Source of the DNA: Thermoanaerobaculia bacterium
GTDB taxonomy: Bacteria; Acidobacteriota; Thermoanaerobaculia; Multivoradales; UBA5704
Reading direction: 5' to 3'
Length of the DNA stretch: 64,000 nucleotides
Assembly (NCBI GenBank): GCA_035637095.1
Contig: DASPXX010000293.1
Span: forward strand, 284 to 64,283
Position 1 is the stretch's first letter, and every line of letters begins with the position of its first letter. This document shows, piece by piece, positions 12,317 to 45,964 of the stretch. A model generated the notes under the pieces. That model was not told the origin of the DNA, made no database searches, and was given only the letters and a program-made list of their open reading frames with translations. The position numbers and the translations under genes are program-made.

Positions 12317-12359
12317 CAAGGGCACGGTTGCACCTCGCTCGGGGGAGCGCCCGCATCCT

Positions 12360-25069: not shown

Positions 25070-26407
25070 TCAGCCTGCTCGGAGCTTCGCGCGATGCGGC
25101 TTCCGCAGGCGTTCGAGCGCCCAGGCCGCGGTCTGCCGCACCGGGCCGGACGGATCGCCGAGCGCGGCGGTCAGGGGATCGAAGCCGCGGGGGTCTCCCA
25201 GCTCTCCGAGCGTCCAGGCCATCTTTTCGCGGACGCGCCCGCTCGGATCGCCCAGGGTGGCGATCACCGCCTCGACGCCGCCGTCCGACCGGAGCCGCTC
25301 CAGCTCTGCCGCGACGTCCTTGGCGCGCCAGTCGCGTCCCGGCAGGCGCGCGATGAGCGCGTCGACCGCGTCGGCCGCCTGCCGTGCCGGCTCGCCGTGC
25401 AGCCGCTCCTCGATCGTCTGCCGACGCGCCGCGGCCTCGACCGCGAGATCCGGCGGAGGTGGCGCGAGCGGCAGCAGGGCGCAGATGGCCAGACCGGCCA
25501 GGGCCGCCGCGCACGCTCCGGCACGGCGCGCTCCCGAGAGCGGCTCGCCGGGCTCGAACAGGCGGCGGACGCGCTGCTCGAGCATCCCGGGATGCGCTGC
25601 CGATGAAGCGACGAGGTCGAGCCCGGCCGACCCGCGGCGGCTCTGCCGCCAGCGCACGACCGCGACGAGCGCCGAGGCGAAATCGACCGGCGCGAGCGAT
25701 TCGACGGCGCGGCGGTCTGCGGCAGCCTCGCTCTCGGCGCGGACGATGCGCTCGAGGAGCCAGAGAGCGGGGCTCACCCAGAGCGCGCAGCGCACGATGC
25801 GGAGGAGGGCGGTGGCGAGGGGGTCCCGCCAGCGCGCGTGATCGAGCTCGTGACGCGCCAGGGCCGCGACCGTGCGGGCCTCGCAGCCGGCGAGCAGAGG
25901 CTCCGGGAGCACGACGGCGCGGGTGCGAACGCCGGCCGCGAACGGGCCGTCGCGGGAGTCGAGGTAGAGAGCGACGCCTTCCGGCCAGCCGAGCGACCGC
26001 CGGAGCGCGGCGGGAGCGGGGCGCCACCGCCGCCGCGCCCGCGCGAGGGCCAGATGGCCGAGCGCCTCCCGCGCGAGGAGCAGGGCCGCCACGCCGGCCC
26101 AACCGGCCGCAGCAAATCGCCCGGCGCGGCTGGACTCCGCGAGGTCGATCACCTCGCCGGGGTGAGTCGCGGGAGAGGACGGGCCGGCCGCGGTCCGCCG
26201 CGGCTCCTGCCGGGGGAGAAGCGTCGCGGCGAGCGGTAGACAAGCGGCCGCCGCAAACGCGACGAGGGCGACCAGGTAGCGCGCCCGCGGCAGCGCCGGA
26301 CGGGCGATCCGGAAGGCGAGCGCCACTCCAAGAGCGATGGGCAACCCGATCGCGATCAGATTGAACCCGAGGCGGAGGACCCACTGCACCGGCTCGAAAG
26401 CGTTCAT
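25070..26407 (-). CDS. BlaR1/MecR1-like M56 membrane metalloprotease sensor with C-terminal HEAT-like repeats
   Basis: Start MNAFEPVQWVLRLGFNLIAIGLPIALGVAL.. overlaps the blaI-like stop (ATGA). TM helices. ..ALARHELDHARWRD.. is the HExxH zinc motif of M56. C-terminus ..LGDPSGRVREKMAWTLGELGDPRGFDPLTAALGDPSGPVRQTAAWALERL has PBS-lyase/HEAT repeats. Confidence 0.8.
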   Translation of the reverse strand: MNAFEPVQWVLRLGFNLIAIGLPIALGVALAFRIARPALPRARYLVALVAFAAAACLPLAATLLPRQEPRRTAAGPSSPATHPGEVIDLAESSRAGRFAAAGWAGVAALLLAREALGHLALARARRRWRPAPAALRRSLGWPEGVALYLDSRDGPFAAGVRTRAVVLPEPLLAGCEARTVAALARHELDHARWRDPLATALLRIVRCALWVSPALWLLERIVRAESEAAADRRAVESLAPVDFASALVAVVRWRQSRRGSAGLDLVASSAAHPGMLEQRVRRLFEPGEPLSGARRAGACAAALAGLAICALLPLAPPPPDLAVEAAARRQTIEERLHGEPARQAADAVDALIARLPGRDWRAKDVAAELERLRSDGGVEAVIATLGDPSGRVREKMAWTLGELGDPRGFDPLTAALGDPSGPVRQTAAWALERLRKPHRAKLRAG

Positions 26408-26802
26408 CGGCGGTCCTCCCGGCGGCGCTGCGCATCGATCAGCGCCTGGATGCGGTCGAGTTGCTCGGAGTCGAGGTCCCTCTCGACGAGATGCGCCGCC
26501 AGCGCCTCGACCGAGCCCTCGAAGAAGCGCTCGGTCAGCCGCCGGATCGCGCCGCCGACCTCGGCGGGCTCCTTGACGAGAGGGCGGTACGCGTGCGCCT
26601 TCCCCGCAGTCTCCCGCGCGACCAGCCCCTTGACCTCCAGGCGGTTGAGCATCGTCTGGATCGTGGTGTAGGCGATCTCGACGCCCTGCTCGCGCAGATG
26701 CCCCTGGACGTCGCTCACCGTCGCGCGGCCGAGCCGCCACAGCGCCTGCATGATGTCCAGCTCGCGATCCCCGAGCGACCTGTCCCCTCGCGGTGCCGTC
26801 AT
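26404..26802 (-). CDS. BlaI/MecI/CopY-family transcriptional repressor
   Basis: From the internal ATG: MTAPRGDRSLGDRELDIMQALWRLGRATVSDVQGHLREQGVEIAYTTIQTMLNRLEVKGLVARE.. The winged-helix region is typical of BlaI. Translationally coupled to the M56 gene. Confidence 0.8.
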   Translation of the reverse strand: MTAPRGDRSLGDRELDIMQALWRLGRATVSDVQGHLREQGVEIAYTTIQTMLNRLEVKGLVARETAGKAHAYRPLVKEPAEVGGAIRRLTERFFEGSVEALAAHLVERDLDSEQLDRIQALIDAQRRREDRR

Positions 26803-26943
26803 TGCCCCGATCTCCTTTCCTACTCGTGTAGGACATGAGCATCGTACCGCCGCGGCGGCGTGCGTGTCAACTACAGGAGTAGGAGGAGGGGAGCAGGGTC
26901 CCGTCAAAGTCGGGCGGAGGCGGAGTTTTCCCCCGCCCAAAGA

Positions 26944-27000
26944 CCCTCACCCCCCTGGTCCCCTCTCCCACCCGCACTCCCACCCTCCGGGAGAGGGGGA
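26944..27000. repeat. Degenerate single-arm copy (c) of the MITE-like element
   Basis: ccctcacccccctggtcccctctccc-acccgcactcccaccctcc-gggagaggggg resembles the outer arm plus hairpin of copies a and b. Confidence 0.5.
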
Positions 27001-27009
27001 ACCCCCAAC

Positions 27010-27210
27010 GCTCGCTTTTTCAAGCTCCCCTTCGTCCATTTCGTCCCCCTCGACAACCGCATCGCGCTCCGCTCCAACCACCTTCCGGGGGAGATCCACG
27101 AGGACCCCGCGGACCGGATCATCATCGCCACGGCGCTGACTCTGGGAGCTCCCCTGGTTTCGAAGGACACGAGGATTCGTGACTATCCTCACGTCGAGAC
27201 CATCTGGTGA
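27010..27210 (+). pseudogene. 3' fragment of a vapC (PIN-domain) toxin gene lacking its 5' half
   Basis: ORF 26860..27210 ends ..FKLPFVHFVPLDNRIALRSNHLPGEIHEDPADRIIIATALTLGAPLVSKDTRIRDYPHVETIW*. The ..DP.DR.IIATAL..g..LVT.D..I..Y.. tail is the C-terminal third of PIN toxins. The N-terminal region is replaced by MITE copy c and unrelated sequence. Confidence 0.45.
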
Positions 27211-27404: not shown

Positions 27405-29045
27405 CTAAGAGCTCTGGGCCTTAGACTCCGCAATCACCCAGCGTGCCCAGCGCCGTCGGCCCCGCAACGCAACCCGAGCCTCTTTGCGCATTTCTTCCAG
27501 AAGCCGCTGAATACCGCTCTCTGATTCGGAAGGCAGCACTTGGCGAAGCTCGGACAGCGGCGAGCCGGCTTCCCCCTGATCGCGAAGGTGCTGGAGCAGC
27601 AACGCCTTGTTCGTCTCGCGATCCAACCCCTTCTTGCGAGTGTAGACGCCCTTGGCCCCGAGAGCCGCATAGAGCCGCCGCGAAAGCAGATAGCGGGTCC
27701 CCTTGCCGCGCCCAAGAGATTCCACCGCTCCTGCAGCAATCAATCCCGGCAGCCGCGCCTTCAGGTGCTCTGGCAATGGCTGTTCCCGGTACAGGCAATG
27801 CAAGGCAAGGAAGTCGTAGGTGGAAAAGAAACTGGTCATCTCTTCGGTCAGCCTCTCCAGATAGCGCACGAAGGCGGGGTCGCGAACCATGCCCTCAAGG
27901 GTCAGGCGCACTTCGTGACTGGACGTGCCTGCGAGGCTGGGCAACAGCTTTCCTTGCCGGAGAGCGCTCTCGAACATCAAGTTCATGCCCTGTCCAGAGC
28001 GCTCGATCAGCCCGCACTTGGCCAAGGCCTCGGCCAGGCGACGATTGCGGGGATTCTGCTGGTCGAGGATGTTTTCGGGGGTGATGCCCGGCGGCAGGCC
28101 GCCCGGGCTCACGATTTCCAGGCGCTGGGGGAACTGGCGGACGAACACCGAGCCACCCAGCCTGTAGTCCCGATGCGCTACCGCATTCAGCAAGGCTTCG
28201 CGCACCGCGACCTCGTCGAAAGTGGGCAACTCCAGACGGAACAGTCCCTCCTGATAGCTCTGGCGGTTATTGCGCAAATTGATCTTCTGCCACAGCATGT
28301 CCTGGCAGAGCAAGAATCCTTCGCGGAGCTCTATGCGATCCGCCGCCGGCCCCGATGCCTCGGACGAGCGATATTCAAAGACGATCTCGGCTTGAGCCAA
28401 CCGCCGTCCGAGGGCGGCATGCGTGCCGAAGAGAATCAGCGCTGCGTATGTAGGCTGGCCATCCAGGAGCAATTCGGCATTGGCCAGCGTGTCCGCGTCG
28501 CTCCAGGACAGCCGCCGCTGGTCGTGCATTTTCGTGGCCCAGCGGGTGCGGAACGCGGAGATCGCTTCCATCGACAGATCGGCCAGGGTCGCCTGGGGGC
28601 ATGGTTCGGCGGAAAAGTCCGGCCCCACTTCGGCAAAGATCGTCCGCAAGTCGGCAGCGGTCATGACTGCGAGATCATCGCCCGCCCGTTTGAGATAGCG
28701 GCCTCCGATCTGCCATGCCGTGCCCGGCAAGCGGCCGGGTACCTTCACCACCAGCACGCGCCCTTCGGGCGTCCGCACCTCTTCGATCGGGATGCGATGC
28801 GACAGACGCTCGTGCAAGCCTGCCTCGGTACGACCCGGTTCGGCAAAGGCGGAGGTGCCGACGATACGCCGAGGCCGCTTATCGGTCACGCCGAGGATGA
28901 TCGTGCCGCCCCCCTCATTGGCGAGTGCGACACAGTATTCAACCAGTTTCTCGAATTGATAGCTCTGTTTGGCCTCTTTAAATTCGAGGTTCCTGCCCTC
29001 GGGCTCGTCGAGCCACTGTTGGAGTTGGTCGTGGGTCGTCGGCAT
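27405..29045 (-). CDS. AlbA_2 (Schlafen-like) + HATPase_c-type ATP-binding protein, putative transcriptional regulator/defense-associated ATPase
   Basis: From the internal ATG: MPTTHDQLQQWLDEPEGRNLEFKEAKQSYQFEKLVEYCVALANEGGGTIILGVTDKRPRRIVGT.. (AlbA_2/Schlafen divergent AAA-like domain). C-terminal half ..LNAVAHRDYRLGGSVFVRQFPQRLEIVSPGGLPPGIT.. (ATPase-like). Divergently transcribed from jetA. Confidence 0.7.
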   Translation of the reverse strand: MPTTHDQLQQWLDEPEGRNLEFKEAKQSYQFEKLVEYCVALANEGGGTIILGVTDKRPRRIVGTSAFAEPGRTEAGLHERLSHRIPIEEVRTPEGRVLVVKVPGRLPGTAWQIGGRYLKRAGDDLAVMTAADLRTIFAEVGPDFSAEPCPQATLADLSMEAISAFRTRWATKMHDQRRLSWSDADTLANAELLLDGQPTYAALILFGTHAALGRRLAQAEIVFEYRSSEASGPAADRIELREGFLLCQDMLWQKINLRNNRQSYQEGLFRLELPTFDEVAVREALLNAVAHRDYRLGGSVFVRQFPQRLEIVSPGGLPPGITPENILDQQNPRNRRLAEALAKCGLIERSGQGMNLMFESALRQGKLLPSLAGTSSHEVRLTLEGMVRDPAFVRYLERLTEEMTSFFSTYDFLALHCLYREQPLPEHLKARLPGLIAAGAVESLGRGKGTRYLLSRRLYAALGAKGVYTRKKGLDRETNKALLLQHLRDQGEAGSPLSELRQVLPSESESGIQRLLEEMRKEARVALRGRRRWARWVIAESKAQSS

Positions 29046-29118
29046 GACGGCGATCTCTTCTCTGAGGTACCACCGCCGATGATACGATACCTCGCGCGAA
29101 CGACGCGAGGTTGCCGCA

Positions 29119-30717
29119 TTGCAAGAAAGAACCACCCCACGCGAACCTGATGCCGTTTCGACGGCCCGGACCGCCGACACCGGTGGCCGGCTGACGCTGT
29201 TCTCTTACACGGTCGAGTCGCTCGCCCCGCTCTACCGTGCGGTCATGCGCCTGTTCCTGGAGGCCAAGGGGCGCTACCGGATCCAGCTGCGGCCGGATGA
29301 GGTCGCCGCCGAGCTCCGCCGCGCGAGCCTCCTGGGGGACCTCCCCGAGGGGAGCGTCGACCGCGCCCTGGACCAGCTCGTCGACTGGGGGAACCTGCGG
29401 CGCAGCCACGACACCGGGCGGGTCGCCACCCTGGAGGACTTCCGCCGCCGTCACTTCATCTATCAGCTGACCGCCGCGGGCGAGGCCGCCGAGCGGGCGG
29501 TCGGCGAGGTCCTGGCCGCCCTGGAGAGGAGCGGCTCGCTGCAGCGGGTGATGCTGGGGACCATTCTGCGCAACCTCCTGGAGATCCGCGGCGAGCTGGA
29601 GAGCGGCGAGCCGAAGCCGGAGCGGTTGTTCGAGCTGCTGTTCAACGTGACGGAGCAGTTCCGCGCCCTGACCGAGAACGCGAGCACCTTCCTCGCCCGG
29701 CTCCACGAGGCGATCGACCAGGGGGAGGTGCGGACCGAGACATTCCTTATCTATAAGCAGGCGGTCCTGGAGTACCTGGAGCAGTTCCTCGGCGAGCTGT
29801 CGGAGATCTCTCCCCGTATCACCCGGGAGGTGCAGGAGATCGAGGCGGCCGGCAGCGAGCGGCTGGTGACCCTGGCGGCCCGCGCCGATGCGGCCCCGAC
29901 GCCGCTCGGCCTCCAGGACCCGGCCGAGGGGCTGCGCCGCAAGTGGCGGGGGATCGCCGCCTGGTTCGTGGGCGACGGCCGGGAGCGCGCCACCGTGGAG
30001 CATCTGCGCTCCGCGGCGCGCGGCGCGATCAACCGCATCCTCCTGGTGCTCGAACGGCTGCACGAGAAACGCTTCCGCCGCTTCAGCCGCGCCGCCGACC
30101 TGCTGCGCTTGGCCGGCTGGTTCGACGGTCTCGACCGGGAGCCCGGGGGTGGGGAGCGCGCCCACCGCCTCTTCCAGGCCCTCTTCGGCCTCTTCGGCGC
30201 CCGGCACCTCGGTGGGCTCGAGGAGGATCCGGATCTGGTGCGGCCCGGCATGAGCTGGTGGGAGGCCCCGCCGGTGCCGATCGCTCCCGTCCTGCGCAAC
30301 ACCGGCCGCGGCAATTTCACCGGCCGGGCGGCGCAGATCGTCGACCACTCGCGGGTGAAGCAGCTCCTCGCCGAGCGCCATCGCCGCGACTGGGAGGCGC
30401 AAGCGGCGGCGCTGGCCCGTTTCGCCGGCCGCGGTCCCCTGGCGCTCGCCGGTCTGCCGCCGCTCTCGCCGGATGAGTTCGCTCTCCTCCTCTCGCTCCT
30501 CGACCAGCTGCTCGCGGCTCCGCCGGCGCCGGACGGCCGGCGCGCGACCCGCAGCCGCGACGGCCGCCTGCGCCTCGCGCTCGGTCCGGCGGCTCCCGGG
30601 GCGCTCGCCAGGATCGAGACAGCGGCCGGCCGGCTCGTCCTCCCGGCGTTCACCCTGGAGGTCGAGACCGCCGGGGAGACGGGGGCGCGGCTCCTCGCCC
30701 GCGGAGGTGCGGCTTGA
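29119..30717 (+). CDS. jetA: JetA-like protein of the TIGR02677/DUF2397 type (first gene of the four-gene SMC-Toprim cassette)
   Basis: 532 aa. ..TLFSYTVESLAPLYRAVMRLFLEAKGRYRIQLRPDEV.. Stop overlaps the next gene start (gcTTGAcc). Size, position and composition match the first gene of the TIGR02677-02678-02680-02679 cassette. Confidence 0.6.
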   Translation: MQERTTPREPDAVSTARTADTGGRLTLFSYTVESLAPLYRAVMRLFLEAKGRYRIQLRPDEVAAELRRASLLGDLPEGSVDRALDQLVDWGNLRRSHDTGRVATLEDFRRRHFIYQLTAAGEAAERAVGEVLAALERSGSLQRVMLGTILRNLLEIRGELESGEPKPERLFELLFNVTEQFRALTENASTFLARLHEAIDQGEVRTETFLIYKQAVLEYLEQFLGELSEISPRITREVQEIEAAGSERLVTLAARADAAPTPLGLQDPAEGLRRKWRGIAAWFVGDGRERATVEHLRSAARGAINRILLVLERLHEKRFRRFSRAADLLRLAGWFDGLDREPGGGERAHRLFQALFGLFGARHLGGLEEDPDLVRPGMSWWEAPPVPIAPVLRNTGRGNFTGRAAQIVDHSRVKQLLAERHRRDWEAQAAALARFAGRGPLALAGLPPLSPDEFALLLSLLDQLLAAPPAPDGRRATRSRDGRLRLALGPAAPGALARIETAAGRLVLPAFTLEVETAGETGARLLARGGAA

Positions 30718-31880
30718 CCACCCTCCTCGACGAAGAGCAGCGCCGGGCCGTCCGTCTCCTCCTCGCCCACCCGTTCGTCAGCGACGCGCGGCCCGATCCC
30801 GAGACCTTCGCTCTCGTCCGCCGCCACGCCCGGGAGCTCCAGCGCTGGTTTGCCGAGCAGCTCGGCTACCGCCTGGTGGTGGACACCGAATTCGCCCGCC
30901 TCCACAAACGGCCGGCTCCCGGTGCGCGCCTCCGCCCGCTCCGCACGCAGAGCAACCTGCCGTTCGATCCGCGCCGCTACGCGCTCCTCTGCCTGGTGCT
31001 CGCCGCCCTGGAGCGCGTCGAGGTGCAGACGGTCCTCTCCGAGCTGGCGGGGCAGGTGGCTCTCCTCGCCGCCTCGGAGGAGGCGGTGCGGGGCTTCGAC
31101 CTGGAGAGCTTCGCCGAGCGGCAGGCGTTCGTCGACGTGATCCGCTGGCTGGTGGAGCAGGGGGTCCTCAGCCTGGCGGACGGCGAGGACACTGCCTTCG
31201 TCGAGGGCCGCGGCGACGCCCTGTACGACCTCCACAGCCGTCGCCTCTCGCAGCTTCTCTCGGCGCCGGTCCCGGCCGCGGCGCCGGAGTCTCTGGAATC
31301 AACGGGCCTCGACGTCTATCCGGAGACCGAGGAGGGGGCGAACCGGCGGGTGCGGCACCGCTTGATGCGCCGGCTGGTCGAAGAGCCTGTCCTTTATATA
31401 GAGGACCTGGAGGAGGCGGAGCGCAGCTACCTCACCTCCCAGCGCCACTATCTGCTCGGCCAGGTCTCCGGCCAGACCGGCCTCGCCGTCGAGGTGCGGC
31501 GGGAGGGGCTCGCGGCGGTCGATCCGGCGGGCCGGTTGAGCGACCTCGCCTTTCCCGCCACCGGGACGCTCTCCCACGCCTCCCTCCTGCTCGCCGGGTA
31601 CCTGGCGGAGACGGCCCGCGCGGCTCCCGATCCCGCCGCCCCGGTCTCCCACGAGGACCTCCGCACCTGCATGGAGGGTCTCCTGGAGCGCTACGGCCAC
31701 CTGTGGAGCAAGCGCTACCGGGACGATCCGGCCGGCGTGGGCAGGCTCCTGGCCGATTCCCTGGAGCTGCTGGAGCAGATGGGGTTGCTTTCCCGCGGGG
31801 GTGGCGGAGTCGTGGCATTGCCGGCAATCGCGCGATTCGGTGTGACGGAGCCGGCCAGCAAGGACGAGACCGATGGATGA
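30714..31880 (+). CDS. jetB: JetB-like protein of the TIGR02678/DUF2398 type
   Basis: 388 aa, TTG start overlapping the jetA stop. Its stop is 8 nt inside the jetC start (ccgATGgATGAgg). Second gene of the cassette. Confidence 0.55.
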   Translation: MTTLLDEEQRRAVRLLLAHPFVSDARPDPETFALVRRHARELQRWFAEQLGYRLVVDTEFARLHKRPAPGARLRPLRTQSNLPFDPRRYALLCLVLAALERVEVQTVLSELAGQVALLAASEEAVRGFDLESFAERQAFVDVIRWLVEQGVLSLADGEDTAFVEGRGDALYDLHSRRLSQLLSAPVPAAAPESLESTGLDVYPETEEGANRRVRHRLMRRLVEEPVLYIEDLEEAERSYLTSQRHYLLGQVSGQTGLAVEVRREGLAAVDPAGRLSDLAFPATGTLSHASLLLAGYLAETARAAPDPAAPVSHEDLRTCMEGLLERYGHLWSKRYRDDPAGVGRLLADSLELLEQMGLLSRGGGGVVALPAIARFGVTEPASKDETDG

Positions 31881-34800
31881 GGGGCTGGTGCAGGGTGGCA
31901 CTCTGGAGATCTTCCCGGGTGGGGCGGCGGCCGCCGCCGCGCTTCCCGCTCCGGGACGCGAGCGCTTCCAGCCGCTGCGCGCCGGCATCCTCAACATCTG
32001 GCAGTACGACGAGCAGGAGCTGCGCTTCCACCAGGGGCGGCTCATCCTGCGCGGCGAGAACGGGAGCGGCAAGTCGAAGGCGCTGGAGGTGCTCCTCCCC
32101 TTCCTCTTCGATGCGGACCTCTCGCCGCAGCGCCTCGATCCGTTCGGCGGCACCTCGCGCTCCATGGAGTGGAACCTGCTCCAGGACGGCCGCTTCGAGA
32201 GCCGCGTCGGCTACGTCTGGCTGGAGCTGGGACGGTGCGGCGACGGCGCGGAGGTCTGCTGGACTCTCGGCTGCGGGCTGCGCGCCACGCAGCGGACCCG
32301 CCGGGTCGAGGCCTGGTACTTCCTCACCCGCCGCCGGGTGGGCCGCGATCTCTTCCTCCTCTCCGCGCAGCGGACCCCCCTCCTCAAGGACCAGCTCCGG
32401 CAGCAGATCGGCGAGGAGGGCTGGGTCTTCGACACCGGCCGCGACTACCGCGAGAAGCTCGACATCCAGATCTTCGGCCTGGGCGAGGACCGTTTCGCGA
32501 CGCTGCGCCACCTCCTGCTGCAGCTCCGGCGGCCGCATCTGTCCGAGCGGCTCGATCCTGCCACGCTCGCGGAGATCCTCAAGGAGAGCCTGCCGCCCCT
32601 CGATACCGATCTCATCGGCCAGCTTTCGGAGAGCTTCGAGCGGCTGGACAACGAGCAGAAGGAGCTGGCCCGGGTCGAGGCCGCGGTGGCCGGCGTGGCC
32701 GCGTTCCTGGAGACCTACCGGGAGTACGGCCGCGGGATCGCGCGCGCCCGCTCCGCCGAGGTGCGCCAGACCGACAGCCGCTATCACAAGACCGCCGCCG
32801 AGGTCCGCGAAGCCGAGGAGGAGCGCGAGCGGCTGGACGGCGGTCTCGCCGATCTGGGAGAGCGCGAGAGCGACCTGGAGGCGGAGACCGCGGCGGTCCG
32901 CGGCAAGCTCCAGGGTCTGGAGAAGTCGGACCTCATGCGCTCGGCCGAGGCGCTCCAGGCCCAGCGCGAGCACGCCGAGGTCCTGGCGCAGCGGGCCTCC
33001 CAGGAGCGGGAGGACGCCAACCGGGAAGCGCAGCGGCAGGAGGACCGCCGGCGGGACTTCGACAGCGCGGAAGCGGAGGCGCGGCGGTCGACGGCCGAGC
33101 GGGAGGCGGCGGCCGCCCTGGCGCTCGCCGCGGCCCGGGAAGCCGGTCTCGAGGCATTGGCCGCGGCCGCCCTGGCCGCGCTGTCCGAGCGGGCCGCGGC
33201 GGCCGAGGCCCTGGTGCGCGCCGCGGTCCACCGCCAGGAGGAGGGGATCGCCGAGCTGCGCCGGCTGGCCCAGGATCGCGATCGGGCGGAGCGGCAGGAG
33301 GAGCGCAGCGAGGAGAAGCTGCGCGAGGCGGATGCCCGGCTGCGCCAGGCCGTGGCACGCAGCCTGGCCGCCCGCGCCGAGGTGGAGCGCCAGCGGCAGC
33401 AGCTCGAGGAGGCGTTGGCCGGCTGGCAGGCGGGTCTGGTCGAGATGGATCTCGACGCGGCAGCTCTGGAGCCTCTGCTCGACCGCATCCAGGCGATCGC
33501 CGGCGGCGAGGAGGTCGACCTGGCAGGAGCGGTTGCCGCGCTGGCGGCGCCGCGGCGGGACGCCCTGGTCCGCGAGCGGGCCGCGCTGGAGGAGGAGGTC
33601 GCACGGGTCGCCGCCGAGCGGCGTGCTGTAGACGAGGAGCGGCGGCGTGTGGAATCTGCCCGCGAGCTCGGCCCGGAGCCGCCGCGGACCCGGGAGAGCG
33701 ACCGGACGGAGAGGCCCGGGGCGCCCCTCTATCTGCTCTGCGAATTCACCGAAAGGCTCGGCGCGGAGGAGCGGGCGGGCCTCGAAGCCGCCCTGGAGGC
33801 CTCGGGGCTCCTCGACGCGTGGGTCCTGCCCGACGGCGGCGTGCTCTCGCCCGGCACCCTCGACACGTTCCTGGTTCCGGCCGATCTCGTCACCGAGACG
33901 AGCCTGGCCAATCTCCTGCGGCCGGCGCCGGATCATGGCGTGGAGCGTGAGGTGATCGAGGCGGTCCTCCGCTCGATCGAGGTCGGACCTGCCGGGGCCG
34001 GTTTTTCCTCGGTCGGAAAGGACGGCGCGTTCCGGCTCGGACCGCTCTCCGGCGCCTGGGCCAAGCCGGTGGCCGAGCACGTGGGCGCCGGTGCCCGCGA
34101 GGCGGCCCGCGCCCGGCGCCTGGCCGAGATCGCCGCACAGCTGGAGGAGCTCAATCGGCGGCTCGCCGGGCTGGCAGCCCAGGGAGAAACCCTGGACGCC
34201 CGGCTCGCGCGCCTGGATCACGAAGCCCTTGCCGCGCCCTCCGCGTCCCCGCTGACCCGGGCGGTCCATCAGGCGGCGGCAGCGACGAGCGAAGAGATCC
34301 GCCAGCGGACCGAGCGGGACGCCGCCGAACAGGAGACCGCCGCGGCGCGGGCTGCCCGGCAGGCCGCCGAGCGGCGGCTCGCAGCCCGGGCGCGCGAGCT
34401 CGACTTGGCGGGCTGGCTCGACGATCTGGAAGGCGCGCGCCTGAGCCTCCTCCGTTTCGAGACCGGCTTCCGCGAGCTGGTCCGTGCCGCGGCGTCCGCG
34501 GTCGCCGCAACGGAGCGCAGCGAGCGGGCGCGCCAGCTCCTGGACGAGGCGGCCTCCCGCGCGGCGGAGCTGCGGTCGCGGGCCCAGGAGAGCGCCGCGG
34601 CGGCACAGTCCGCGGCGGCGGAATACGCGACGCTCGAAGCCACGGTGGGGGTCGAGGCGCGGGAGGTCCTGGAGCTCCATCGCGCGGAGAGCCGCCGGCT
34701 CGGCGATCTCGAGCATCGGGAGAAACGGCTGGGCGAGGAGATCCAGACGGCCCGCGAGCAGCGGGCCCGCATCCGCGAGCGTCTGGAGCTCCGGCAGGTC

Positions 34801-35949
34801 GAGCTGGCGGAGCGCGAAGCCGAGCGCGCCGGGGCGGTGGCGCGGCTGGGGAGATGGGTGGATGCCGGCCTGCTTCCCCTGGTGCTCGGCGAGAGCGCGG
34901 AGCCGCCGCCGGCCTGGTCGCTCACCCGCGCCCTCGACCTCGCCCGCGAGATCGAGAAGGCGACCGCCAACGTGGACCTGGGGCCGGAGGCCGCGAACCG
35001 CCGGGTCAACCGGCTGCACGAGCAGTTCCGTCTCCTCGCCGCCGATCTGGGCGCCGACTACCAGCCGAGCCTCGACCAGGACGAGGACCTGGTCCGGGCC
35101 CGGGTGGGCTACAACGGCCGCGAGTACGACGTCCCCGGCCTCCTCGCCACCCTCCGCGAAAACCTGGAGGTCCGCCGCAACCTGCTCGCCGAGCACGAGC
35201 GAGAAGTCCTCCGGCGCTATCTGTTGGGCGAGGTGGGCGACCACCTGCGCCACCGCCTCCGCGAGGCCCGCGCCCTGGTGGAGGAGATGAACCGGCTGCT
35301 GGAGGAGTGCCGGACGGCCTCGGGGCTGACCTTGAAGCTCGCCTGGGAGCCGACGCCTGAGGCCGCTCCCGAGATCCGCGATGCGGTGCAGCTGATCCGC
35401 CAGGACCTCGCCCTCCTCGCCGACCACGACCGCCGCCGGCTGGAGGCCTTCTTCCAGGCGAGGATCTCGGAAGCCCGCCAGCAGTGGGAGGCCGTGCCGT
35501 GGCGCGAGCACCTGATGGCGGCCCTCGACTACCGTGCCTGGCACCGCTTCCGGATCCTCCGCCGCACCGGCGACGACAGCGGCTGGATCGAGCTCACCCG
35601 CCGCGGCCATGGCGCCAGCTCCGGGGGCGAGAAGGCGGTGGCTCTCCACCTTCCCCTGTTCGCCGCGGCCGCGGCCCACTACCGCTCGGCGCTCCCCACC
35701 GCGCCGCGCGTCATCCTGCTCGACGAGGCGTTCGCCGGCATCGACCAGCGGATGCGGGGGCGCTGCATGGGCCTGCTGGTCGATTTCGATCTCGACTTCA
35801 TGATGACCAGCCATGAGGAATGGGGCTGCTACGAAGAGCTGCCCGGGGTGGCGACCTACCAGCTCTACCGCGATCCGGCTCTCGACGGCGTGGCGGCCGT
35901 GCGCTTCGTCTGGTCGGGCCACTCTCTCCGGGAGGACCCGGCGGGGTGA
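31873..35949 (+). CDS. jetC: JetC-like SMC-family ATPase (TIGR02680 type, 1358 aa)
   Basis: N-terminal Walker A ..LILRGENGSGKSKALEVLLPFLFDADLSPQRLDPFG... Very long Ala/Glu/Arg-rich coiled-coil middle. C-terminal ..SSGGEKAVALHLPLFAAAAAHY...RVILLDEAFAGIDQRMR... (ABC signature-like SGGEK plus Walker B LLDEAF). This SMC/RecN-like architecture matches TIGR02680. Confidence 0.8.
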   Translation: MDEGLVQGGTLEIFPGGAAAAAALPAPGRERFQPLRAGILNIWQYDEQELRFHQGRLILRGENGSGKSKALEVLLPFLFDADLSPQRLDPFGGTSRSMEWNLLQDGRFESRVGYVWLELGRCGDGAEVCWTLGCGLRATQRTRRVEAWYFLTRRRVGRDLFLLSAQRTPLLKDQLRQQIGEEGWVFDTGRDYREKLDIQIFGLGEDRFATLRHLLLQLRRPHLSERLDPATLAEILKESLPPLDTDLIGQLSESFERLDNEQKELARVEAAVAGVAAFLETYREYGRGIARARSAEVRQTDSRYHKTAAEVREAEEERERLDGGLADLGERESDLEAETAAVRGKLQGLEKSDLMRSAEALQAQREHAEVLAQRASQEREDANREAQRQEDRRRDFDSAEAEARRSTAEREAAAALALAAAREAGLEALAAAALAALSERAAAAEALVRAAVHRQEEGIAELRRLAQDRDRAERQEERSEEKLREADARLRQAVARSLAARAEVERQRQQLEEALAGWQAGLVEMDLDAAALEPLLDRIQAIAGGEEVDLAGAVAALAAPRRDALVRERAALEEEVARVAAERRAVDEERRRVESARELGPEPPRTRESDRTERPGAPLYLLCEFTERLGAEERAGLEAALEASGLLDAWVLPDGGVLSPGTLDTFLVPADLVTETSLANLLRPAPDHGVEREVIEAVLRSIEVGPAGAGFSSVGKDGAFRLGPLSGAWAKPVAEHVGAGAREAARARRLAEIAAQLEELNRRLAGLAAQGETLDARLARLDHEALAAPSASPLTRAVHQAAAATSEEIRQRTERDAAEQETAAARAARQAAERRLAARARELDLAGWLDDLEGARLSLLRFETGFRELVRAAASAVAATERSERARQLLDEAASRAAELRSRAQESAAAAQSAAAEYATLEATVGVEAREVLELHRAESRRLGDLEHREKRLGEEIQTAREQRARIRERLELRQVELAEREAERAGAVARLGRWVDAGLLPLVLGESAEPPPAWSLTRALDLAREIEKATANVDLGPEAANRRVNRLHEQFRLLAADLGADYQPSLDQDEDLVRARVGYNGREYDVPGLLATLRENLEVRRNLLAEHEREVLRRYLLGEVGDHLRHRLREARALVEEMNRLLEECRTASGLTLKLAWEPTPEAAPEIRDAVQLIRQDLALLADHDRRRLEAFFQARISEARQQWEAVPWREHLMAALDYRAWHRFRILRRTGDDSGWIELTRRGHGASSGGEKAVALHLPLFAAAAAHYRSALPTAPRVILLDEAFAGIDQRMRGRCMGLLVDFDLDFMMTSHEEWGCYEELPGVATYQLYRDPALDGVAAVRFVWSGHSLREDPAG

Positions 35950-37214
35950 GCGCGGAGGCCGGGGAGCTCCTCCGTTTCCTGGGCCGGCGGGAGCTGCGGC
36001 GGCTCTGGATGGAGGTCCGCGACCGGCTGGAGCGCTTGGGCGGCCTCCGCGGAACGGTGCTCCTCGCCGATGCCGGGGAGGAGGAGAGGCGGATGGTGGC
36101 GGACCTCCTCGGTCTGGCGACCGTCCCAGGGGGCGAGCTCCGCATCCGGCTCGACCGCCTCGACCGAGTCCTCCGGGAGTCCCGGTTCGCGGTCGACCTG
36201 CGCACGGCCGTGGAGCTTCTGGGCGGACCGCTGCGCGACCGGCCGGGCGAGCGGGCCGAGGAACGCGAACGCCGCCAGAAGCTCTGGGAAGACGCCGCCC
36301 GCCATCCGGTCGTCGCCGCCCGCCCCGCCCTCCAGCTCTGGCTCGACGCTCTGCGATCGGGCGGGCTGTTGCGGCGGCTGGCCGGCCACGGTGGCGAGCG
36401 GCTTCTCCTGGAGCAGGCGCTCGCCGTCCTCGCCGCGCTCTCCCGCCGCCCGGACGCGGTCCGTCTGCCCGTCCTCGCCAGCGAGGTGCTCGGCGACAGC
36501 CATGCTCTGGACGCCGGCCGCCCGGTGACCACCCTGGTCCTCAAGGCGCTCGCCCGCGAGGCCGATCTTCAGCCGCCGCGGGGCGCCGCCGAGCGCCGCC
36601 AGCTGTGGGAGCAGGCCGGAGTGGTGGCGGACGACCTGAGCTGCCAGGTGCTGGTCCTGGGCCTTGCGCCCGTCGGGGGCGGACCTGTCGGTGAAAGCCT
36701 CCGCGCCCTGGCGGCGGCGGGAGAGCCGGCGCGCATCACCTTGCGCCAGCTCCTCAACGGAGATCTCGCGTTCCCTCCCGGTCTCGAGGTCCGCATCTGC
36801 GAAAACCCGGTCGTGGTCGCCGCCGCGGCGGACCGTTGGGGTCCTGCCTGCCCGCCGCTCCTCTGCCTCGAAGGCTTCGCGAGCTATGCCGCCCACACAC
36901 TCCTGGCGCGGCTCGCGCGACACGGCGCCGTCTTCCGCTATCACGGAGATTTCGACTGGGATGGGTTGCGGATCGCCAACAAGCTGCGCGAGGTCGTGCC
37001 GTTCCAGCCCTGGCGCTTCACGACGGCCGACTACCGAGCGGCTCTCACCGCCGGGGGTGAGCGGCCCTCGCTCCACGGGTACCCCGCGGTGGCTTCATGG
37101 GATACGGAGCTCGGCGGCGCCCTCGCGGAGGCCGGCTTGGCGGTGGAAGAGGAGACGGTCCTCGGCGGTCTGCTCGGTGACCTGGCAAAAGTCCCTCTCA
37201 GGGAAAGATCGTGA
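35946..37214 (+). CDS. jetD: JetD-like protein with C-terminal Toprim-type domain (TIGR02679/DUF2399 type)
   Basis: GTG start overlapping the jetC stop (gGTGAgc). C-terminal ..LCLEGFASYAAHTLLARLARHGAVFRYHGDFDWDGLRIANKLREVVPFQPW.. has a Toprim-like acidic motif (E...GDFDWDG). Size and position are consistent with the fourth gene of the cassette. Confidence 0.6.
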   Translation: MSAEAGELLRFLGRRELRRLWMEVRDRLERLGGLRGTVLLADAGEEERRMVADLLGLATVPGGELRIRLDRLDRVLRESRFAVDLRTAVELLGGPLRDRPGERAEERERRQKLWEDAARHPVVAARPALQLWLDALRSGGLLRRLAGHGGERLLLEQALAVLAALSRRPDAVRLPVLASEVLGDSHALDAGRPVTTLVLKALAREADLQPPRGAAERRQLWEQAGVVADDLSCQVLVLGLAPVGGGPVGESLRALAAAGEPARITLRQLLNGDLAFPPGLEVRICENPVVVAAAADRWGPACPPLLCLEGFASYAAHTLLARLARHGAVFRYHGDFDWDGLRIANKLREVVPFQPWRFTTADYRAALTAGGERPSLHGYPAVASWDTELGGALAEAGLAVEEETVLGGLLGDLAKVPLRERS

Positions 37215-37261
37215 CCGGCGTGCCGACCGGTACCGGTCGAACAGCTCTCTCATGCCCGGAT

Positions 37262-37500
37262 CGGACGGGCCATCTGTTCCGAGATATGGGCCACCTGCTC
37301 CGCGGAACGAGACCCCGTTCCGCGGTACGGGTCACCTGCTCCGAGGTACAGGCCATCTGTTCCGCGGAGCGAGCCGCCTGTTCCGTGGAGCGAGCTGTCC
37401 ATTCCGCGGAGCGAGCCTCCTGTTCCACCGGGCGAAGCCCCGCTCCGAGGAACGAGCCTCCCGTTCCGCGGAACGGATCACCCGCTCCATGGAACGGGAA
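37262..37500. repeat. Field of about 11 degenerate tandem repeats with a palindromic TCCGCGGA core
   Basis: ctgttccgagatatgg / ctgctccgcggaacgag / cgttccgcggtacggg / ctgctccgaggtacagg / ctgttccgcggagcgag / ctgttccgtggagcgag / cattccgcggagcgag / ctgttccaccgggcgaag / cgctccgaggaacgag / ccgttccgcggaacgg / cgctccatggaacggg. Period about 21-24 bp. Lies immediately downstream of jetD. A perfect 16-bp palindrome CGACCGGTACCGGTCG precedes it at about 37226. Confidence 0.65.
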
Positions 37501-37644
37501 GCCCACATCCTGGACCTCGCCGCGGACGTCATGGGGCGGACCGCCTCCAGCGCAGGGTGTGGGGGGTGGTGGATGGGATTTGTACGGGAAGGCAGGATGG
37601 GACGGGAGAGGCCGTATACTAGAGCCTACTGGAGGGGAGGAACC

Positions 37645-37953
37645 ATGCCGCGTCCGCACATTTTCCATGTGGTGTTCTTCAAGGACAGAGATTGGTGGGT
37701 CGCCCAGTGTCTTGAGCGAAATCTCGCAACGGCTTCTCAAGACCCGAAAGACCTGCCGAGCAAGCTTGAGACTGTACTGAAGGTCCAGATCGAGGCCGAT
37801 CAGGAGGCGGGCATCGAGCCCTTCAGTGCCTTGCCGCAGGCACCACGCCGCTTTTGGCAGATGTTCCAACGCGCCGAGCTCTGGCAGCTCGATGAGGGCA
37901 TGGCAGAGCCGCCCGTCAATACTCCGGCGTGGACCGAGCTGGCGGTAGCCTAG
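37645..37953 (+). CDS. HicB-like (UPF0150) antitoxin-family protein
   Basis: SD GGAGGggaGGaaccATG. MPRPHIFHVVFFKDRDWWVAQCLERNLATASQDPKDLPSKLETVLKVQIEADQEAGIEPFSALPQAP.. follows the UPF0150/HicB pattern (..viek.edg.wva.vpelpg..tqG.t.eEal.n.keaie..le...e.g.p.P). Confidence 0.5.
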   Translation: MPRPHIFHVVFFKDRDWWVAQCLERNLATASQDPKDLPSKLETVLKVQIEADQEAGIEPFSALPQAPRRFWQMFQRAELWQLDEGMAEPPVNTPAWTELAVA

Positions 37954-38207
37954 TCGTCCGGTAACGGATTCAGCCCAAGCAGGGTTGCATCGAAACCCAG
38001 ATTTTCGCAGTGAGCCTCTTGTTCTCTTGGTGACAGAAGGGCGTTCGGCCCCTTGTCACCCAGGGAAGTCCTTTCTCCCGCCGGGCCTTCCAGAAAGAAT
38101 CCGCTCTTGTTTTGCCTCAGCACCACCTTGAAACCGCTGATGTGGTCCAGCTCGTTCATGAACTGTCTCACAGTTCGCTCGTGACTCAACGACCTCCCTC
38201 CATCCAT
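37950..38207 (-). CDS. Divergent HicA/YcfA-like small protein (lacks the canonical GSH motif)
   Basis: Internal start of ORF 37950..38339, whose N-terminal part overlaps the tRNA and is spurious. MDGGRSLSHERTVRQFMNELDHISGFKVVLRQNKSGFFLEGPAGERTSLGDKGPNALLSPREQEAHCENLGFDATLLGL resembles HicA (..LeknGfelvRqkGSHhif.hP..gr.vTvP....l...tl.sIlkqaGl) but has KSG instead of GSH. Convergent with the hicB-like gene and overlapping it by 4 nt. Confidence 0.3.
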   Translation of the reverse strand: MDGGRSLSHERTVRQFMNELDHISGFKVVLRQNKSGFFLEGPAGERTSLGDKGPNALLSPREQEAHCENLGFDATLLGLNPLPDD

Positions 38208-38255
38208 GAGCGGCGTCTGAACAGCATTACCCCTGGGCCAGGCGCTTTCAACAAA

Positions 38256-38345
38256 TGGCGGAGGGGGTGGGATTCGAACCCACGGGCCGCGTGAACGACC
38301 GGCGGTTTTCAAGACCGCTGCTTTAGACCGCTCAGCCACCCCTCC
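38256..38345 (-). tRNA. tRNA-Ser (anticodon UGA), 90 nt with a long variable arm and encoded CCA
   Basis: Reverse complement GGAGGGGTGGCTGAGCGGTCTAAAGCAGCGGTCTTGAAAACCGCCGGTCGTTCACGCGGCCCGTGGGTTCGAATCCCACCCCCTCCGCCA. 7-bp acceptor stem GGAGGGG/CCCCTCC, anticodon loop CTTGAAA (TGA), T-arm GTGGG-TTCGAAT-CCCAC, long variable arm, discriminator G plus CCA. Confidence 0.85.
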
Positions 38346-38358: not shown

Positions 38359-39642
38359 TTACTTGGTGGGCTCGATCCTCTCCAAACCGCCCATCCAGGG
38401 ACGCAGCGCCTCGGGGATCAACACCGTGCCGTCCTCCTGCTGGTAGTTCTCCAGGATCGCCACCAGCGTCCGCCCCACGGCGAGGCCCGAGCCGTTCAGG
38501 GTGTGCAGGAGCTTCGCCTTGCCGCCGCCGGCCGGCCGGTAGCGCAGGTTCGCCCGCCTCGCCTGGAAATCCTCGCAGTTGCTGCAGGAGGAGATCTCCC
38601 GGTAGGCGTCCTGGGCGGGCAGCCAGACCTCGATGTCGTGCGTCTTCGCCGCGCCGAAGCCCATGTCCCCGGTCGAGAGCGTGACCACCCGGTAGGGGAG
38701 CCCCAGGCGCTCGAGGACCTTCTCGGCGTTGCCGGTCAGCTCGGCGAGGGCGTCGTAGCTCGTCTCCTGGGTGGTCAGGTGCACCAGCTCGACCTTGTTG
38801 AACTGGTGCTGGCGGATCAGGCCGCGGACGTCCTTGCCGTAGGAGCCGGCCTCACTGCGGAAGCAGGGGGTCCAGGCGGTGAAGCGGACGGGCAGACGCT
38901 CTTCGTCCAGGGTCTCGTCGCGGTAGAGATTGGTCAGCGGCACTTCGGCCGTGGGAACCAGGAAGTAGTTGGTCCCTTCCAGATGGAAGAGGTCCTGCTC
39001 GAACTTGGGGAGCTGGCCGGTGCCGGTCAGGCTCTCGCGGCTGACGATGAACGGCGGCAGGACCTCGGTGTAGCCGTGCTCGCGGGTGTGGAGGTCGAGC
39101 ATGAAGTTGATCAGCGCCCTTTCGAGGCGGGCGCCGGCGCCGAAGTAGGCGGTGAAGCGGGCGCCGGCCACCTTGGCGCCGCGCTCGAAATCGAGGATGC
39201 CGAGCGCCGGGCCGAGGTCCCAGTGGGCCTTGGGCGTGAAATCGAAACGGCGCGGCTCGCCGACCACCCGCTCGACGCGGTTGGCCGACTCGTCGGGGCC
39301 GACCGGCACGCTCTCGTGCGGCAGGTTGGGGAGCGAGAGCTCGACGGCGGCCATCTCGGGATCGAGAGCGGCGAGACGGGCCTCCAACTCCTCGATGCGC
39401 TCCTTCATCCGGCCGACGGCGGCGATCTCGGCCGAGGCGTCGCCTCCCTGCTGCTTGACCTTGCCGATGGCGCGGCTCGCCTCGTTGCGCTGCCGCTTCA
39501 AGTCTTCGACCTCGACGAGGTCGGTCCGCCGCTCGGCGTCGAGGCGCAGCCACTCGTCGAGCAGGGCCGGGTCGGTGTTCCGGGTCGCCAGGGCCTGGCG
39601 GACCTTGTCGGGGTTGTCGCGCAAAAGGTCTCGGGAAAGCAT
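38359..39642 (-). CDS. serS: Seryl-tRNA synthetase
   Basis: From the internal ATG: [39 protein letters not shown].. (N-terminal coiled-coil arm). Class II catalytic core with ..[34 protein letters not shown].. and ..[20 protein letters not shown]... The extra 107 N-terminal codons of the listed ORF are Ala/Ser-rich and unlikely to be translated. Confidence 0.9.
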
Positions 39643-42600: not shown

Positions 42601-43258
42601 CGCGGACGGCCGGACCTACCTGCTCGACGCTCTCGGGCAGCGGCTGGGTCTGGACGTCGCCCGCTTCTTCCCCAGCTCCATCCGTCCCCGGCCCGCCACC
42701 TGGCTCTGGCCGCCACTCACCATCCTCTTCACCACGGTTCTCTGGTGGTTCCCCTTCCGGAGAGGGGGCCAGGGGGTAAGGGTCGCCGGGCTCGCCGGAG
42801 TCGCCGCCGTCCTGCTCCTCGCCGCGGCGGTCCCCCCGGCCGCCGCACGCCTGCCCACCACGGTCGCCGAGATCGAGGACCCGCAGGTGGCGAAGAGCGG
42901 TGGGCATCTCTATCCCGACCGCTGGATCATCGAGCGGGCTCGCCATCGCGGCGGCTGGGTGCTGCGGGTCGGCGAGCGGGTGAAGGTGCCGGTGAAGGCC
43001 GGGGGACGGCGGGTCTGCCTGGTGCTCCGGGGAGAGCTCGTCCAGAACCAGCTGGTGCCGTTCCGGCTCGACATACAGGCAGGCGACCGACTGCTGGCCG
43101 TCTGGGCTCCGGGCCGCGACCGCGCCTGGGATGCAGTGACGCTCGGCCCCTTCGACTGGCCGGCGGGCAAGCCCCTGGTGCTCTCCGCCTTCGGGCCGCA
43201 CCCGCCGGGAGAGCCCAACGGCATCGTGCTCGACCGGGTGGATTTCGCATGGGAGTGA
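39695..43258 (+). CDS. Large polytopic membrane protein, probable GT-C-type glycosyltransferase/EPS assembly protein (about 1187 aa); contains in-frame MITE copy b
   Basis: Start placed after the divergent serS start ([24 protein letters not shown].. or GTG about 39740). Many hydrophobic helices. Region ..[35 protein letters not shown].. resembles the first loop of GT-C (ArnT/PMT/YfhO-like) glycosyltransferases. Followed by five glycosyltransferase genes with overlapping junctions. The antisense ORF 39677..43201 is an artefact. Confidence 0.6.
40057..40164. mobile_element. MITE-like palindromic element, copy b (108 bp = 36 codons), inserted in-frame inside the membrane protein gene
   Basis: ccctcacccccggcccctctccc-gcgagc-gggagagggg-tgaacagcaagagaatgtctttgctttgct-cccctctccc-gctcgc-gggagaggggccgggggtgaggg. 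Same architecture as copy a with a shorter spacer. Translated as ..[41 protein letters not shown].. without a stop. Confidence 0.7.
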
Positions 43259-45002: not shown

Positions 45003-45964
45003 ACGTGGCCGTCTGCATCGTCACCCACAACTCCGCCGCCGACCTCCCTGGCTGTCTGGAGGCGGTGGGGCGGTTGGAGCACCGGCCGCTGGAGGTCGTG
45101 GTGGTGGACTGCGCCAGCGCGGACGGCAGCCTCGACGTGGCGCGGCGCCATGCCCCGCCGGGCCTCCCCTTCCAGGCCGTCGATCTCGGCGAGAACCGCG
45201 GCTTCACGGGCGGGATGAACGCTGCCCTGGCCACTTCGAGCTCCGACTGGGTGCTGACCCTCAACGCCGACGCCCGGCCCGCTCCGGACTACGTCACCCG
45301 CCTCCTCGCCCGCGCGGAGGCCCATCCGGACCTGCGGACCGGCGCCGTCACCGGCCGGCTCGTCCGTCCCGACGGGCGCCTCGACGCCTGCGGCATGCGC
45401 CTGACACGCACCTGGCGCCACCTGGACCGCGGCTCGGGGGAGCCGGACCACGGCCAGTACATGATCCCCGAGCGGGTCTTCGGCGCCTCGGGTGCGGCCT
45501 CGCTCTTCCGCCGCGCAGCCCTGGAGGACGCCGCCGTGGACGGCGAGGTGTTCGATGCCCGGTTCCACTCGTTCCGCGAGGACGCCGAGCTCTGCTTCCG
45601 CCTGCGCGAGCGCGGCTGGGAGATCCTTTACGAGCCCGCGGCGGTCGCCGAGCACCGCCGGTTCAACCTGCCGGAGCGGCGGTCCTCGATGCCTGCGATC
45701 GTCAACTATCACTCCCTGAAGAACCGCTACCTCCTGCGGCTCTACCACCAGACCGCCGGCAACTTCGTCCGCACCCTGCTGCCGGCGCTCCTCCGCGACC
45801 TGATGGCCCTCGCCTGGGTGCTGCTCTTCGAGCGCAGCTCGCTCCCCGCCTATACCTGGCTCTGGAAGCACCGCCGCGAGATCCTGCGCCGCCGCCGCCT
45901 TATCCAGGGGCGCCGCACAGCCACCCTCGACCGCTGGTTCTCCTCCGCGGGAGACCCCCTGTGA
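44999..45964 (+). CDS. Family 2 glycosyltransferase
   Basis: MNVAVCIVTHNSAADLPGCLEAVGRLEHRPLEVVVVDCASADGS...NRGFTGGMNAAL.. DxD-type GT2 core. Stop overlaps the GT4 start (GTGA). Confidence 0.8.
   Translation: MNVAVCIVTHNSAADLPGCLEAVGRLEHRPLEVVVVDCASADGSLDVARRHAPPGLPFQAVDLGENRGFTGGMNAALATSSSDWVLTLNADARPAPDYVTRLLARAEAHPDLRTGAVTGRLVRPDGRLDACGMRLTRTWRHLDRGSGEPDHGQYMIPERVFGASGAASLFRRAALEDAAVDGEVFDARFHSFREDAELCFRLRERGWEILYEPAAVAEHRRFNLPERRSSMPAIVNYHSLKNRYLLRLYHQTAGNFVRTLLPALLRDLMALAWVLLFERSSLPAYTWLWKHRREILRRRRLIQGRRTATLDRWFSSAGDPL

Follow-up and report, generated by a model that had tools for sequence, protein, structure and literature searches.

The closest described relative of the locus reported here is nvJET-II, the type II Wadjet system of Neobacillus vireti LMG 21834, which restricts plasmids (bioRxiv 10.1101/2025.03.10.642339). 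Its motor unit is JetA1B1C2 with a single 388-aa tandem-KITE JetB, and plasmid cleavage requires JetABC together with JetD and ATP and works with manganese (bioRxiv 10.1101/2025.03.10.642339). nvJET-II cuts circular or artificially circularised DNA at random positions and does not cut linear DNA, and its activity fades on circles of about 50 kb and above (bioRxiv 10.1101/2025.03.10.642339). In this work we analysed a stretch of 64,000 nucleotides from the chromosome of an uncultured Thermoanaerobaculia bacterium (Acidobacteriota; GenBank contig DASPXX010000293.1), referred to below as the window, whose positions 29119-37214 (+) carry four genes, jetA-jetB-jetC-jetD. Judged from the sequences of their products, we consider it very probable that these genes form a complete and apparently functional type II Wadjet system.

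Composition and proposed function of the cassette

An earlier reading of the same DNA (the original prediction) had proposed a four-gene SMC-ATPase/Toprim cassette here, Wadjet-like with the architecture TIGR02677-02678-02680-02679, and this proposal holds, since all four proteins match these models full-length and far above the curated cut-offs. In hidden Markov model (HMM) searches with PF09660, PF09661, PF09664 and TIGR02677-02680, each of the four proteins was matched with E-values from 1e-88 to 0, and in the PADLOC run the best models were JetA2, JetB2, JetC2 and JetD2, while the type I and type III models gave marginal scores only. Moreover, JetC, JetA and JetB match chains of the N. vireti structures (PDB 9qe0/9qe1) with E-values of 3.8e-99, 1.2e-31 and 3.4e-12, respectively. 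By every sequence criterion testable, the cassette is a type II Wadjet.

The individual matches were as follows. JetA aligns with PF09660 over positions 1-482 of 483 (464 bits, E 9e-139), reaches 379 bits with TIGR02677 (cut-off 166) and E 1.6e-144 with PADLOC JetA2, and its match in the solved complex is chain 9qe0_E. JetB aligns with PF09661 over positions 2-361 of 363 (363 bits, E 1.7e-108), with TIGR02678 at 295 bits (cut-off 125) and with PADLOC JetB2 at E 3.8e-123, and about residues 2-339 align to the JetB of 9qe0_D. For JetC, TIGR02680 gave 1043 bits (cut-off 463) and PADLOC JetC2 1287 bits, PF13558 (SbcC_Walker_B) was also matched, and the alignment with nvJetC (9qe0_A) covers residues 35-1350. 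The Walker A motif GENGSGKS, the signature SGGEK and the Walker B motif with D-loop ILLDEAFAGID align residue for residue with nvJetC; together with the Toprim residues described below, this shows that the Walker and Toprim-like motifs noticed in the original prediction are not degenerate.

The four open reading frames (ORFs) are co-oriented and overlapping as first described (Table 1), and the junctions read TTGA for jetA/jetB, ATGGATGA for jetB/jetC and GTGA for jetC/jetD, with overlaps of 4, 8 and 4 nt. Overlaps at every junction are consistent with translational coupling. The start of jetA is TTG, the first in-frame start, and the GTG start of jetD is backed both by the start of the PADLOC JetD2 profile and by a 100% identical 422-aa NCBI protein (P0001). 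The G+C content (GC) of the cassette is 0.737 and that of the window 0.689, and GC at the third codon position (GC3) of the cassette genes is 0.83-0.91, as in host genes. Proteins identical to those of the window are attributed by NCBI to a Thermoanaerobaculia metagenome-assembled genome (MAG), and the best matches of SerS, encoded nearby, come from Thermoanaerobaculia and Holophagales MAGs at 71-78% identity; an actinobacterial source, which the high GC had suggested, was rejected on these matches and names.

JetD matched PF11796 and PF09664, reached 330 bits with TIGR02679 (cut-off 196) and E 1.3e-137 with PADLOC JetD2. In an alignment of 47 homologues with 45-81% identity, E286 (in CENP), H333, D335 and D337 (in HGDFDWDG), E402 and E403 are invariant. 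An AlphaFold2 (AF2) model of the protein has a pLDDT of 93.6, and its best PDB matches in Foldseek are MksG of C. glutamicum (8b7f), JetD of P. aeruginosa (7til), topoisomerase VI-A (1d3y and M. mazei entries) and Spo11. Residue conservation and fold thus both support reading JetD as a Toprim nuclease with a predicted MksG / JetD / Topo VI-A fold.

For the action of this cassette we take the N. vireti JET-II and type I systems as models. One SMC motor unit would be built from a JetC dimer, the kleisin JetA and the tandem KITE JetB, and two units would pair into a dimer of motors, which would load on DNA, extrude loops with ATP and sense small circular DNA. On a small circle, extrusion would reach completion and the motors would stall against each other. 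The JetD dimer would then be activated and cut both strands without sequence preference, and host exonucleases would degrade the linearised plasmid, with the large chromosome and linear DNA spared. By this analogy the cassette most likely cuts up small circular plasmids, and one implication is that circular plasmids may establish with difficulty in this lineage.

Several points weigh against this assignment. For jetA, a consensus scan gave one weak promoter-like site just upstream, at 28956-28984 (+) with the form TTGATA-17-TAAATT, which is a consensus match only. A sequence search of the PDB gave no match for JetD, and hence its structure was predicted from the homologue alignment; the link of JetD to solved nucleases is a predicted fold with modest TM-scores (0.3-0.4 overall), which are modest because the N-terminal CAP-like part differs. 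In addition, for activity, metal dependence and size limit the basis is extrapolation from a distant Bacillota homologue.

The identification is correct and ordinary, as the system is already known and already classified: standard annotation tools of the PADLOC type call the cassette directly and NCBI labels its proteins by TIGRFAM names, JetD being already named a TIGR02679 family protein. The analysis adds an uncultured Thermoanaerobaculia lineage to the hosts of an intact type II Wadjet and matters little beyond annotation, and no new mechanism or component is indicated.

Table 1. Features of the window from the AlbA_2 gene to serS, with window coordinates
Feature	Position	Strand	Basis or remark
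SLFN_AlbA_2 + HATPase_c_4 protein, 546 aa	27405-29045	-	Pfam; not part of the Wadjet system
Divergent intergenic region, 73 bp	29046-29118	.	between AlbA_2 gene and jetA
jetA, 532 aa	29119-30717	+	kleisin subunit of type II Wadjet (DUF2397 / TIGR02677)
jetB, 388 aa	30714-31880	+	tandem-KITE subunit (DUF2398 / TIGR02678)
jetC, 1358 aa	31873-35949	+	SMC-type ATPase (TIGR02680)
jetD, 422 aa, GTG start	35946-37214	+	predicted DUF3323 + DUF2399 Toprim nuclease (TIGR02679)
Frameshifted 3' remnant of L,D-transpeptidase (YkuD) gene	37198-37263	-	blastn vs L089; marks where synteny resumes
Degenerate tandem array, about 11 units of 21 bp, core GTTCCGCGGA(A/G)C	37265-37505	.	TRF period 21; families D1, D2; units in register
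Conserved 102-aa protein, HicB-N-terminal-like predicted fold	37645-37953	+	AF2 model, Foldseek
69-aa protein	37950-38159	-	ORF; convergent with 102-aa gene, 3' ends overlap by 4 nt
tRNA-Ser(UGA)	38256-38345	-	ARAGORN; Rfam tRNA 60.7 bits
serS	38359-39633	-	SerS Pfam domains; directly adjoins tRNA-Ser(UGA)

Related cassettes, flanking genes and alternative readings

Homologues of JetD numbered 433 at E <1e-10 in the scored set, and the closest ones carrying names (64-83% identical) come from Thermoanaerobaculia or Acidobacteriota. In five related loci (L081, L082/L083, L084, L085) the order jetA-B-C-D is kept and the encoded proteins share about 64-88% identity with their window counterparts, and the flanks differ, with orotidine monophosphate decarboxylase and xanthine permease found twice, ThiG once and uracil-DNA glycosylase once. 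Neither an AlbA_2 gene nor tRNA-Ser stands beside the cassette in any of the five. From these neighbourhoods the cassette behaves as a compact four-gene module that changes place, and the comparison shows the subtype circulating in this form among Acidobacteriota.

The original prediction had paired the cassette with a divergent AlbA_2/Schlafen-type ATPase gene. The gene is real and divergent, but the pairing is not conserved, being absent at the five related cassettes. The extent of the gene was set by homologue length, which leaves 73 bp before jetA, and with so short a distance between divergent starts the promoters of the AlbA_2 gene and jetA probably overlap. Its protein has >5796 homologues, 72-80% identical and 546-549 aa long, whose hosts include Deltaproteobacteria, Geobacter, Nitrospirota, Myxococcales, Gemmatimonas and others, and two close homologues adjoin other defence-like genes (SIR2_2, AAA_16, NucS_C) with no Wadjet beside them. 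Given this identity across distant phyla and a GC of 0.629, the gene has a transfer history separate from that of the cassette, and it seems to have been transferred on its own and to have ended up beside the operon. As further observations, a conservation of 72-80% is unusually high for a protein spread over distant phyla, and the window's AlbA_2 protein had no 100% match in the protein collection, in which JetD and the 102-aa protein each had one.

The tRNA-Ser(UGA) gene reported at the end of this region was found again (Table 1). serS and tRNA-Ser(UGA) are adjacent in four relatives (L001, L002, L004, L007) and 2-5 kb apart in two others (L003, L005), and the genes on the serS side (a glycosyltransferase gene, 45961-47079 and 47150-48604) are syntenic in L003, L005 and L007. 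On the other side, none of the genes from 1-38.2 kb of the window was found downstream of tRNA-Ser in the L001-L007 relatives examined; instead, L001 encodes a TIR-TPR protein there, L005 has a UPF0175 module, and L002 carries another copy of tRNA-Ser together with the gene of a trypsin-like protein. On these sequences, the site downstream of tRNA-Ser is variable across the class. In L002, a Holophagales relative, the two tRNA-Ser(UGA) genes lie downstream of serS at 11295-11384 and 11872-11958, about 0.5 kb apart, and are followed by the low-GC3 trypsin-like gene, which may be a trace of integration at that tRNA there.

The closest relative, L088/L089 (JGI 3300004781), was reached via the 102-aa protein; its SerS is 91.7% identical and its tRNA-serS DNA 89% identical to that of the window. 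The gene order there is S58 peptidase, PrsW, antitoxin, YkuD, tRNA-Ser, serS, 102-aa gene, 79-aa gene, membrane proteins and family 2 glycosyltransferase (GT2). A cassette shared at this locus by close relatives would argue against an island, and the Wadjet cassette is not at this locus in L088/L089, the sole close relative compared, which argues for a variable region. Synteny with L089 breaks at 37197-37214, at the jetD stop and about 1 kb from tRNA-Ser; since the YkuD remnant and the small-gene pair lie between jetD and the tRNA, the break is placed at jetD and not at the tRNA.

Could the four genes serve another purpose, or none? Some features would suit a chromosome-organising condensin of the MukBEF/MksBEF type rather than a defence system: the SMC, kleisin and KITE subunits of JetABC have relatives in MukBEF, nvJET-II at rest has a structure similar to that of MukBEF, and the codon composition of the cassette is host-like. 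However, housekeeping MksBEF/MukBEF have no counterpart of the fourth gene, whose product is a predicted Toprim nuclease in which the catalytic residues are invariant, the cassette is missing at this locus in the closest relative and lies in other contexts in related genomes, and the type II homologue restricts plasmids, so that we consider a housekeeping condensin very improbable. Decay of the neighbouring YkuD gene might suggest that the cassette is likewise an inactive relic, but its four ORFs are intact and full length against the profiles, the catalytic motifs are preserved, starts and stops still overlap, and the genes have the high GC3 seen in host genes, which makes a relic highly unlikely. 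Nor is the AlbA_2/HATPase_c_4 protein likely to be coupled functionally to the system as a fifth component that senses or regulates. Such a role is suggested by the divergent arrangement with 73 bp between the starts, but the AlbA_2 gene adjoins none of the five related cassettes, two of its close homologues sit without Wadjet, and its identity across distant phyla and lower GC (0.629) indicate a separate transfer history; given the gene context in relatives we reject it as a Wadjet partner, and we give a fifth component hardly any weight.

A further proposal is that the cassette came in on a mobile island which had inserted into the tRNA-Ser(UGA) 3' end and whose cargo also included the AlbA_2 gene, the repeat field and the small genes. 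What follows tRNA-Ser is different in each of the relatives examined (L001-L007, L088/L089) and includes defence-like or toxin-antitoxin genes in some (TIR-TPR in L001, UPF0175 in L005), the tRNA gene is present in two nearby copies in L002, and the closest relative lacks the cassette. GC also falls at 27-29 kb and 37.2-38.25 kb, the latter drop having been correctly seen in the original prediction (0.621 in 37215-38255 vs 0.689 for the window). However, no integrase or recombinase domain was found in the scanned ORFs of 1-38.2 kb (Pfam, NCBIfam and PADLOC, with ORFs from a GC3-based caller). The direct repeat of the tRNA-Ser 3' end that had been suggested as a mark of integration did not appear either: no second copy was found within the window at <=3 mismatches in 24 nt, and blastn-short gave only 11-nt chance matches. 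Moreover, GC and GC3 of the cassette are host-like, with only the flanks (37215-38255 and the AlbA_2 gene) deviating from host composition, the remnant of a native YkuD gene and the small-gene pair, which flanks serS in the relative, separate jetD from the tRNA, and the left border is outside the window or nonexistent. Thus, of the tRNA-Ser-adjacent island first proposed, the absence of the cassette here in the closest relative stands, and the missing integrase and attachment (att) repeat, the host-like GC of the cassette and the native gene remnant before the tRNA speak against the rest; the island reading thus has partial support, and we regard integration at this tRNA as unlikely. We keep the reading of a type II Wadjet module at a variable chromosomal site.

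The jetD-tRNA-Ser segment and other genes of the window

Positions 6241-6308 of L089, the 3' end of the YkuD gene, match window positions 37197-37263 at 84%, and a 1-nt deletion breaks the frame in the window; the remnant reads ...VPVGTPVTIFP* vs ...VPVGTPVAIYP* in L089. With the stop codon included, the last 18 nt of jetD fall within this match, in convergent orientation. The remainder of the YkuD gene is replaced by the repeat field and the small-gene pair.

The repeat field noted downstream of the cassette is real and consists of about 11 units of 21 bp. A counterpart is absent in L089, and the array had no Rfam match. When a three-unit array pattern was searched, it matched >119 metagenome contigs, nearly all with period-21 arrays, and a literature search for such 21-bp arrays returned nothing specific. 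These period-21 counterparts with the TCCGCGGA core occur on contigs with GC of 0.36-0.74 in 2 to 48 copies (loci L093-L172), and a high-GC subset of the contigs (e.g. L102) shares the longer motif CCG(C/T)TCCGCGGA(A/G)C; L102 carries at 7700-7900 a near-identical 21-bp unit in an unrelated context. In viral contigs, control palindromic cores were equal or commoner (2 vs 2 and 13), and no gene family recurred beside the period-21 arrays found. A special family was rejected on these counts and on the missing Rfam match; because control cores were as common and no neighbour gene recurred, we do not claim a specific repeat family, and its enrichment is unproven.

The two small genes beyond the array had been called HicB/HicA-like. 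What stands of this is a weak resemblance of the 102-aa protein to the HicB fold: its AF2 model (pLDDT 83) has as weak top PDB matches in Foldseek HicB 6g1c_B (E 0.018, TM 0.59), 4p78_A and 6g26, none with E <0.001. What does not stand is the HicA/HicB identity by HMM, which was rejected, as neither the 102-aa nor the 69-aa protein had a match in Pfam (E up to 10), NCBIfam (E up to 1) or PADLOC, and the genes are convergent and not an operon. The 102-aa protein belongs to 112 homologue clusters, 59-93% identical, nearly all of about 102 aa and all named hypothetical, and the homologues carrying an organism name are all from Thermoanaerobaculia. Its 69-aa partner is 87% identical in L088/L089, in the same convergent arrangement. 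The small-gene pair at L089 8419-8973 matches window positions 37635-38189 on the opposite side of tRNA-serS, i.e. this 555-bp module changed sides, being downstream of tRNA-Ser here and between serS and the membrane-protein genes in L089. In L086 and L087 the 102-aa gene stands in other surroundings and has no such partner. It is conceivable, and we hold it as quite a long shot, that the whole segment of about 1 kb between jetD and tRNA-Ser, i.e. the 21-bp array and the convergent small genes, is a small relocating module which replaced the body of the YkuD gene, and that the array might serve it as a site of recombination or binding, or might act on the Wadjet operon.

Elsewhere, defence-type genes abound in the left part of the window. 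At 12988-17013 (+) a 1341-aa Eco57I / PglX-like N6-adenine methyltransferase, type IIG-like, is encoded; the scores of PglX models fall a long way short of the cut-offs, and its surroundings hold no other BREX genes. It adjoins (11292-11876, 12139-12939) a Uma2 (PADLOC PDC-S03) and metallo-beta-lactamase ORF and a weak AbiEii-like ORF. Toxin-antitoxin-type genes are found at 1213-2136 (-) and 26860-27210 (+), among them one for an HTH_37 protein, ORFs with weak likeness to Phd/YefM and to ParE, and one with a PIN domain, the last of which matches just the C-terminal half of the PIN profile. At 25070-26940 (-), a BlaI-type repressor gene (Penicillinase_R, E 3e-30) stands upstream of that of a BlaR1-like M56 peptidase with HEAT repeats, and the long ORF called at 25070-26842 reaches too far, into the repressor gene. 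Within the window GC is lowest at 3001-4470 (0.554); the 384-aa ORF there, 3316-4470 (-), and the neighbouring ORFs had no match in Pfam, NCBIfam or PADLOC. On the far side of serS, a very large hydrophobic protein with no Pfam match is encoded at about 39700-43258 (+), upstream of glycosyltransferase genes, in a region with strong negative AT skew that is syntenic with two L089 ORFs.

Comparison with known systems

Of the systems compared, HicAB is likened to the small genes alone: the predicted fold of the 102-aa protein is closest, weakly, to the HicB N-terminal domain. Unlike hicAB, however, the small genes are convergent and not co-transcribed, with no HMM match to HicA or HicB, the 102-aa protein has no recognisable DNA-binding C-terminal domain, and its gene also occurs partnerless.

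MukBEF and MksBEF share with the cassette a dimeric SMC-kleisin-KITE organisation, and both the resting geometry and the channel-less hinge of type II resemble those of MukBEF. They have no nuclease subunit and act in chromosome organisation, whereas the cassette here has a JetD with an intact active site and a patchy, mobile distribution.

Type I Wadjet and MksBEFG (E. coli GF4-3 JET, P. aeruginosa PA14 JetABCD, C. glutamicum MksBEFG) follow the same logic of an SMC-kleisin-KITE motor with a Toprim nuclease, and the best PDB folds for the window JetD model are MksG 8b7f and PaJetD 7til. However, their subunits belong to other families, and type I PADLOC models reach only E 1e-10 (JetC) and 1e-5 (JetD) here. 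In type I, the KITE is a homodimeric protein of about 240 aa, the coiled coils are shorter and JetD has another N-terminal domain (bioRxiv 10.1101/2025.03.10.642339), and type I and type II subunits are not interchangeable (bioRxiv 10.1101/2025.03.10.642339).

With nvJET-II of N. vireti LMG 21834 (PDB 9qe0/9qe1), the window shares the four families and their order. JetB has 388 aa in both, the nvJetB being a tandem KITE (bioRxiv 10.1101/2025.03.10.642339), and JetC, with 1371 aa in N. vireti vs 1358 aa in the window, is alignable over almost its full length (E 3.8e-99) with shared ATPase motifs. A difference is found in the residue aligned after the D-loop region, which is His in the window JetC (MTSHEEW) and Gln in nvJetC (MNSQALW). 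The hosts also differ, Bacillota there and Acidobacteriota here, and the sequences are diverged, with JetB matched only at E 3.4e-12; the cassette could thus serve as a diverged, high-GC comparison for the only type II system studied so far.

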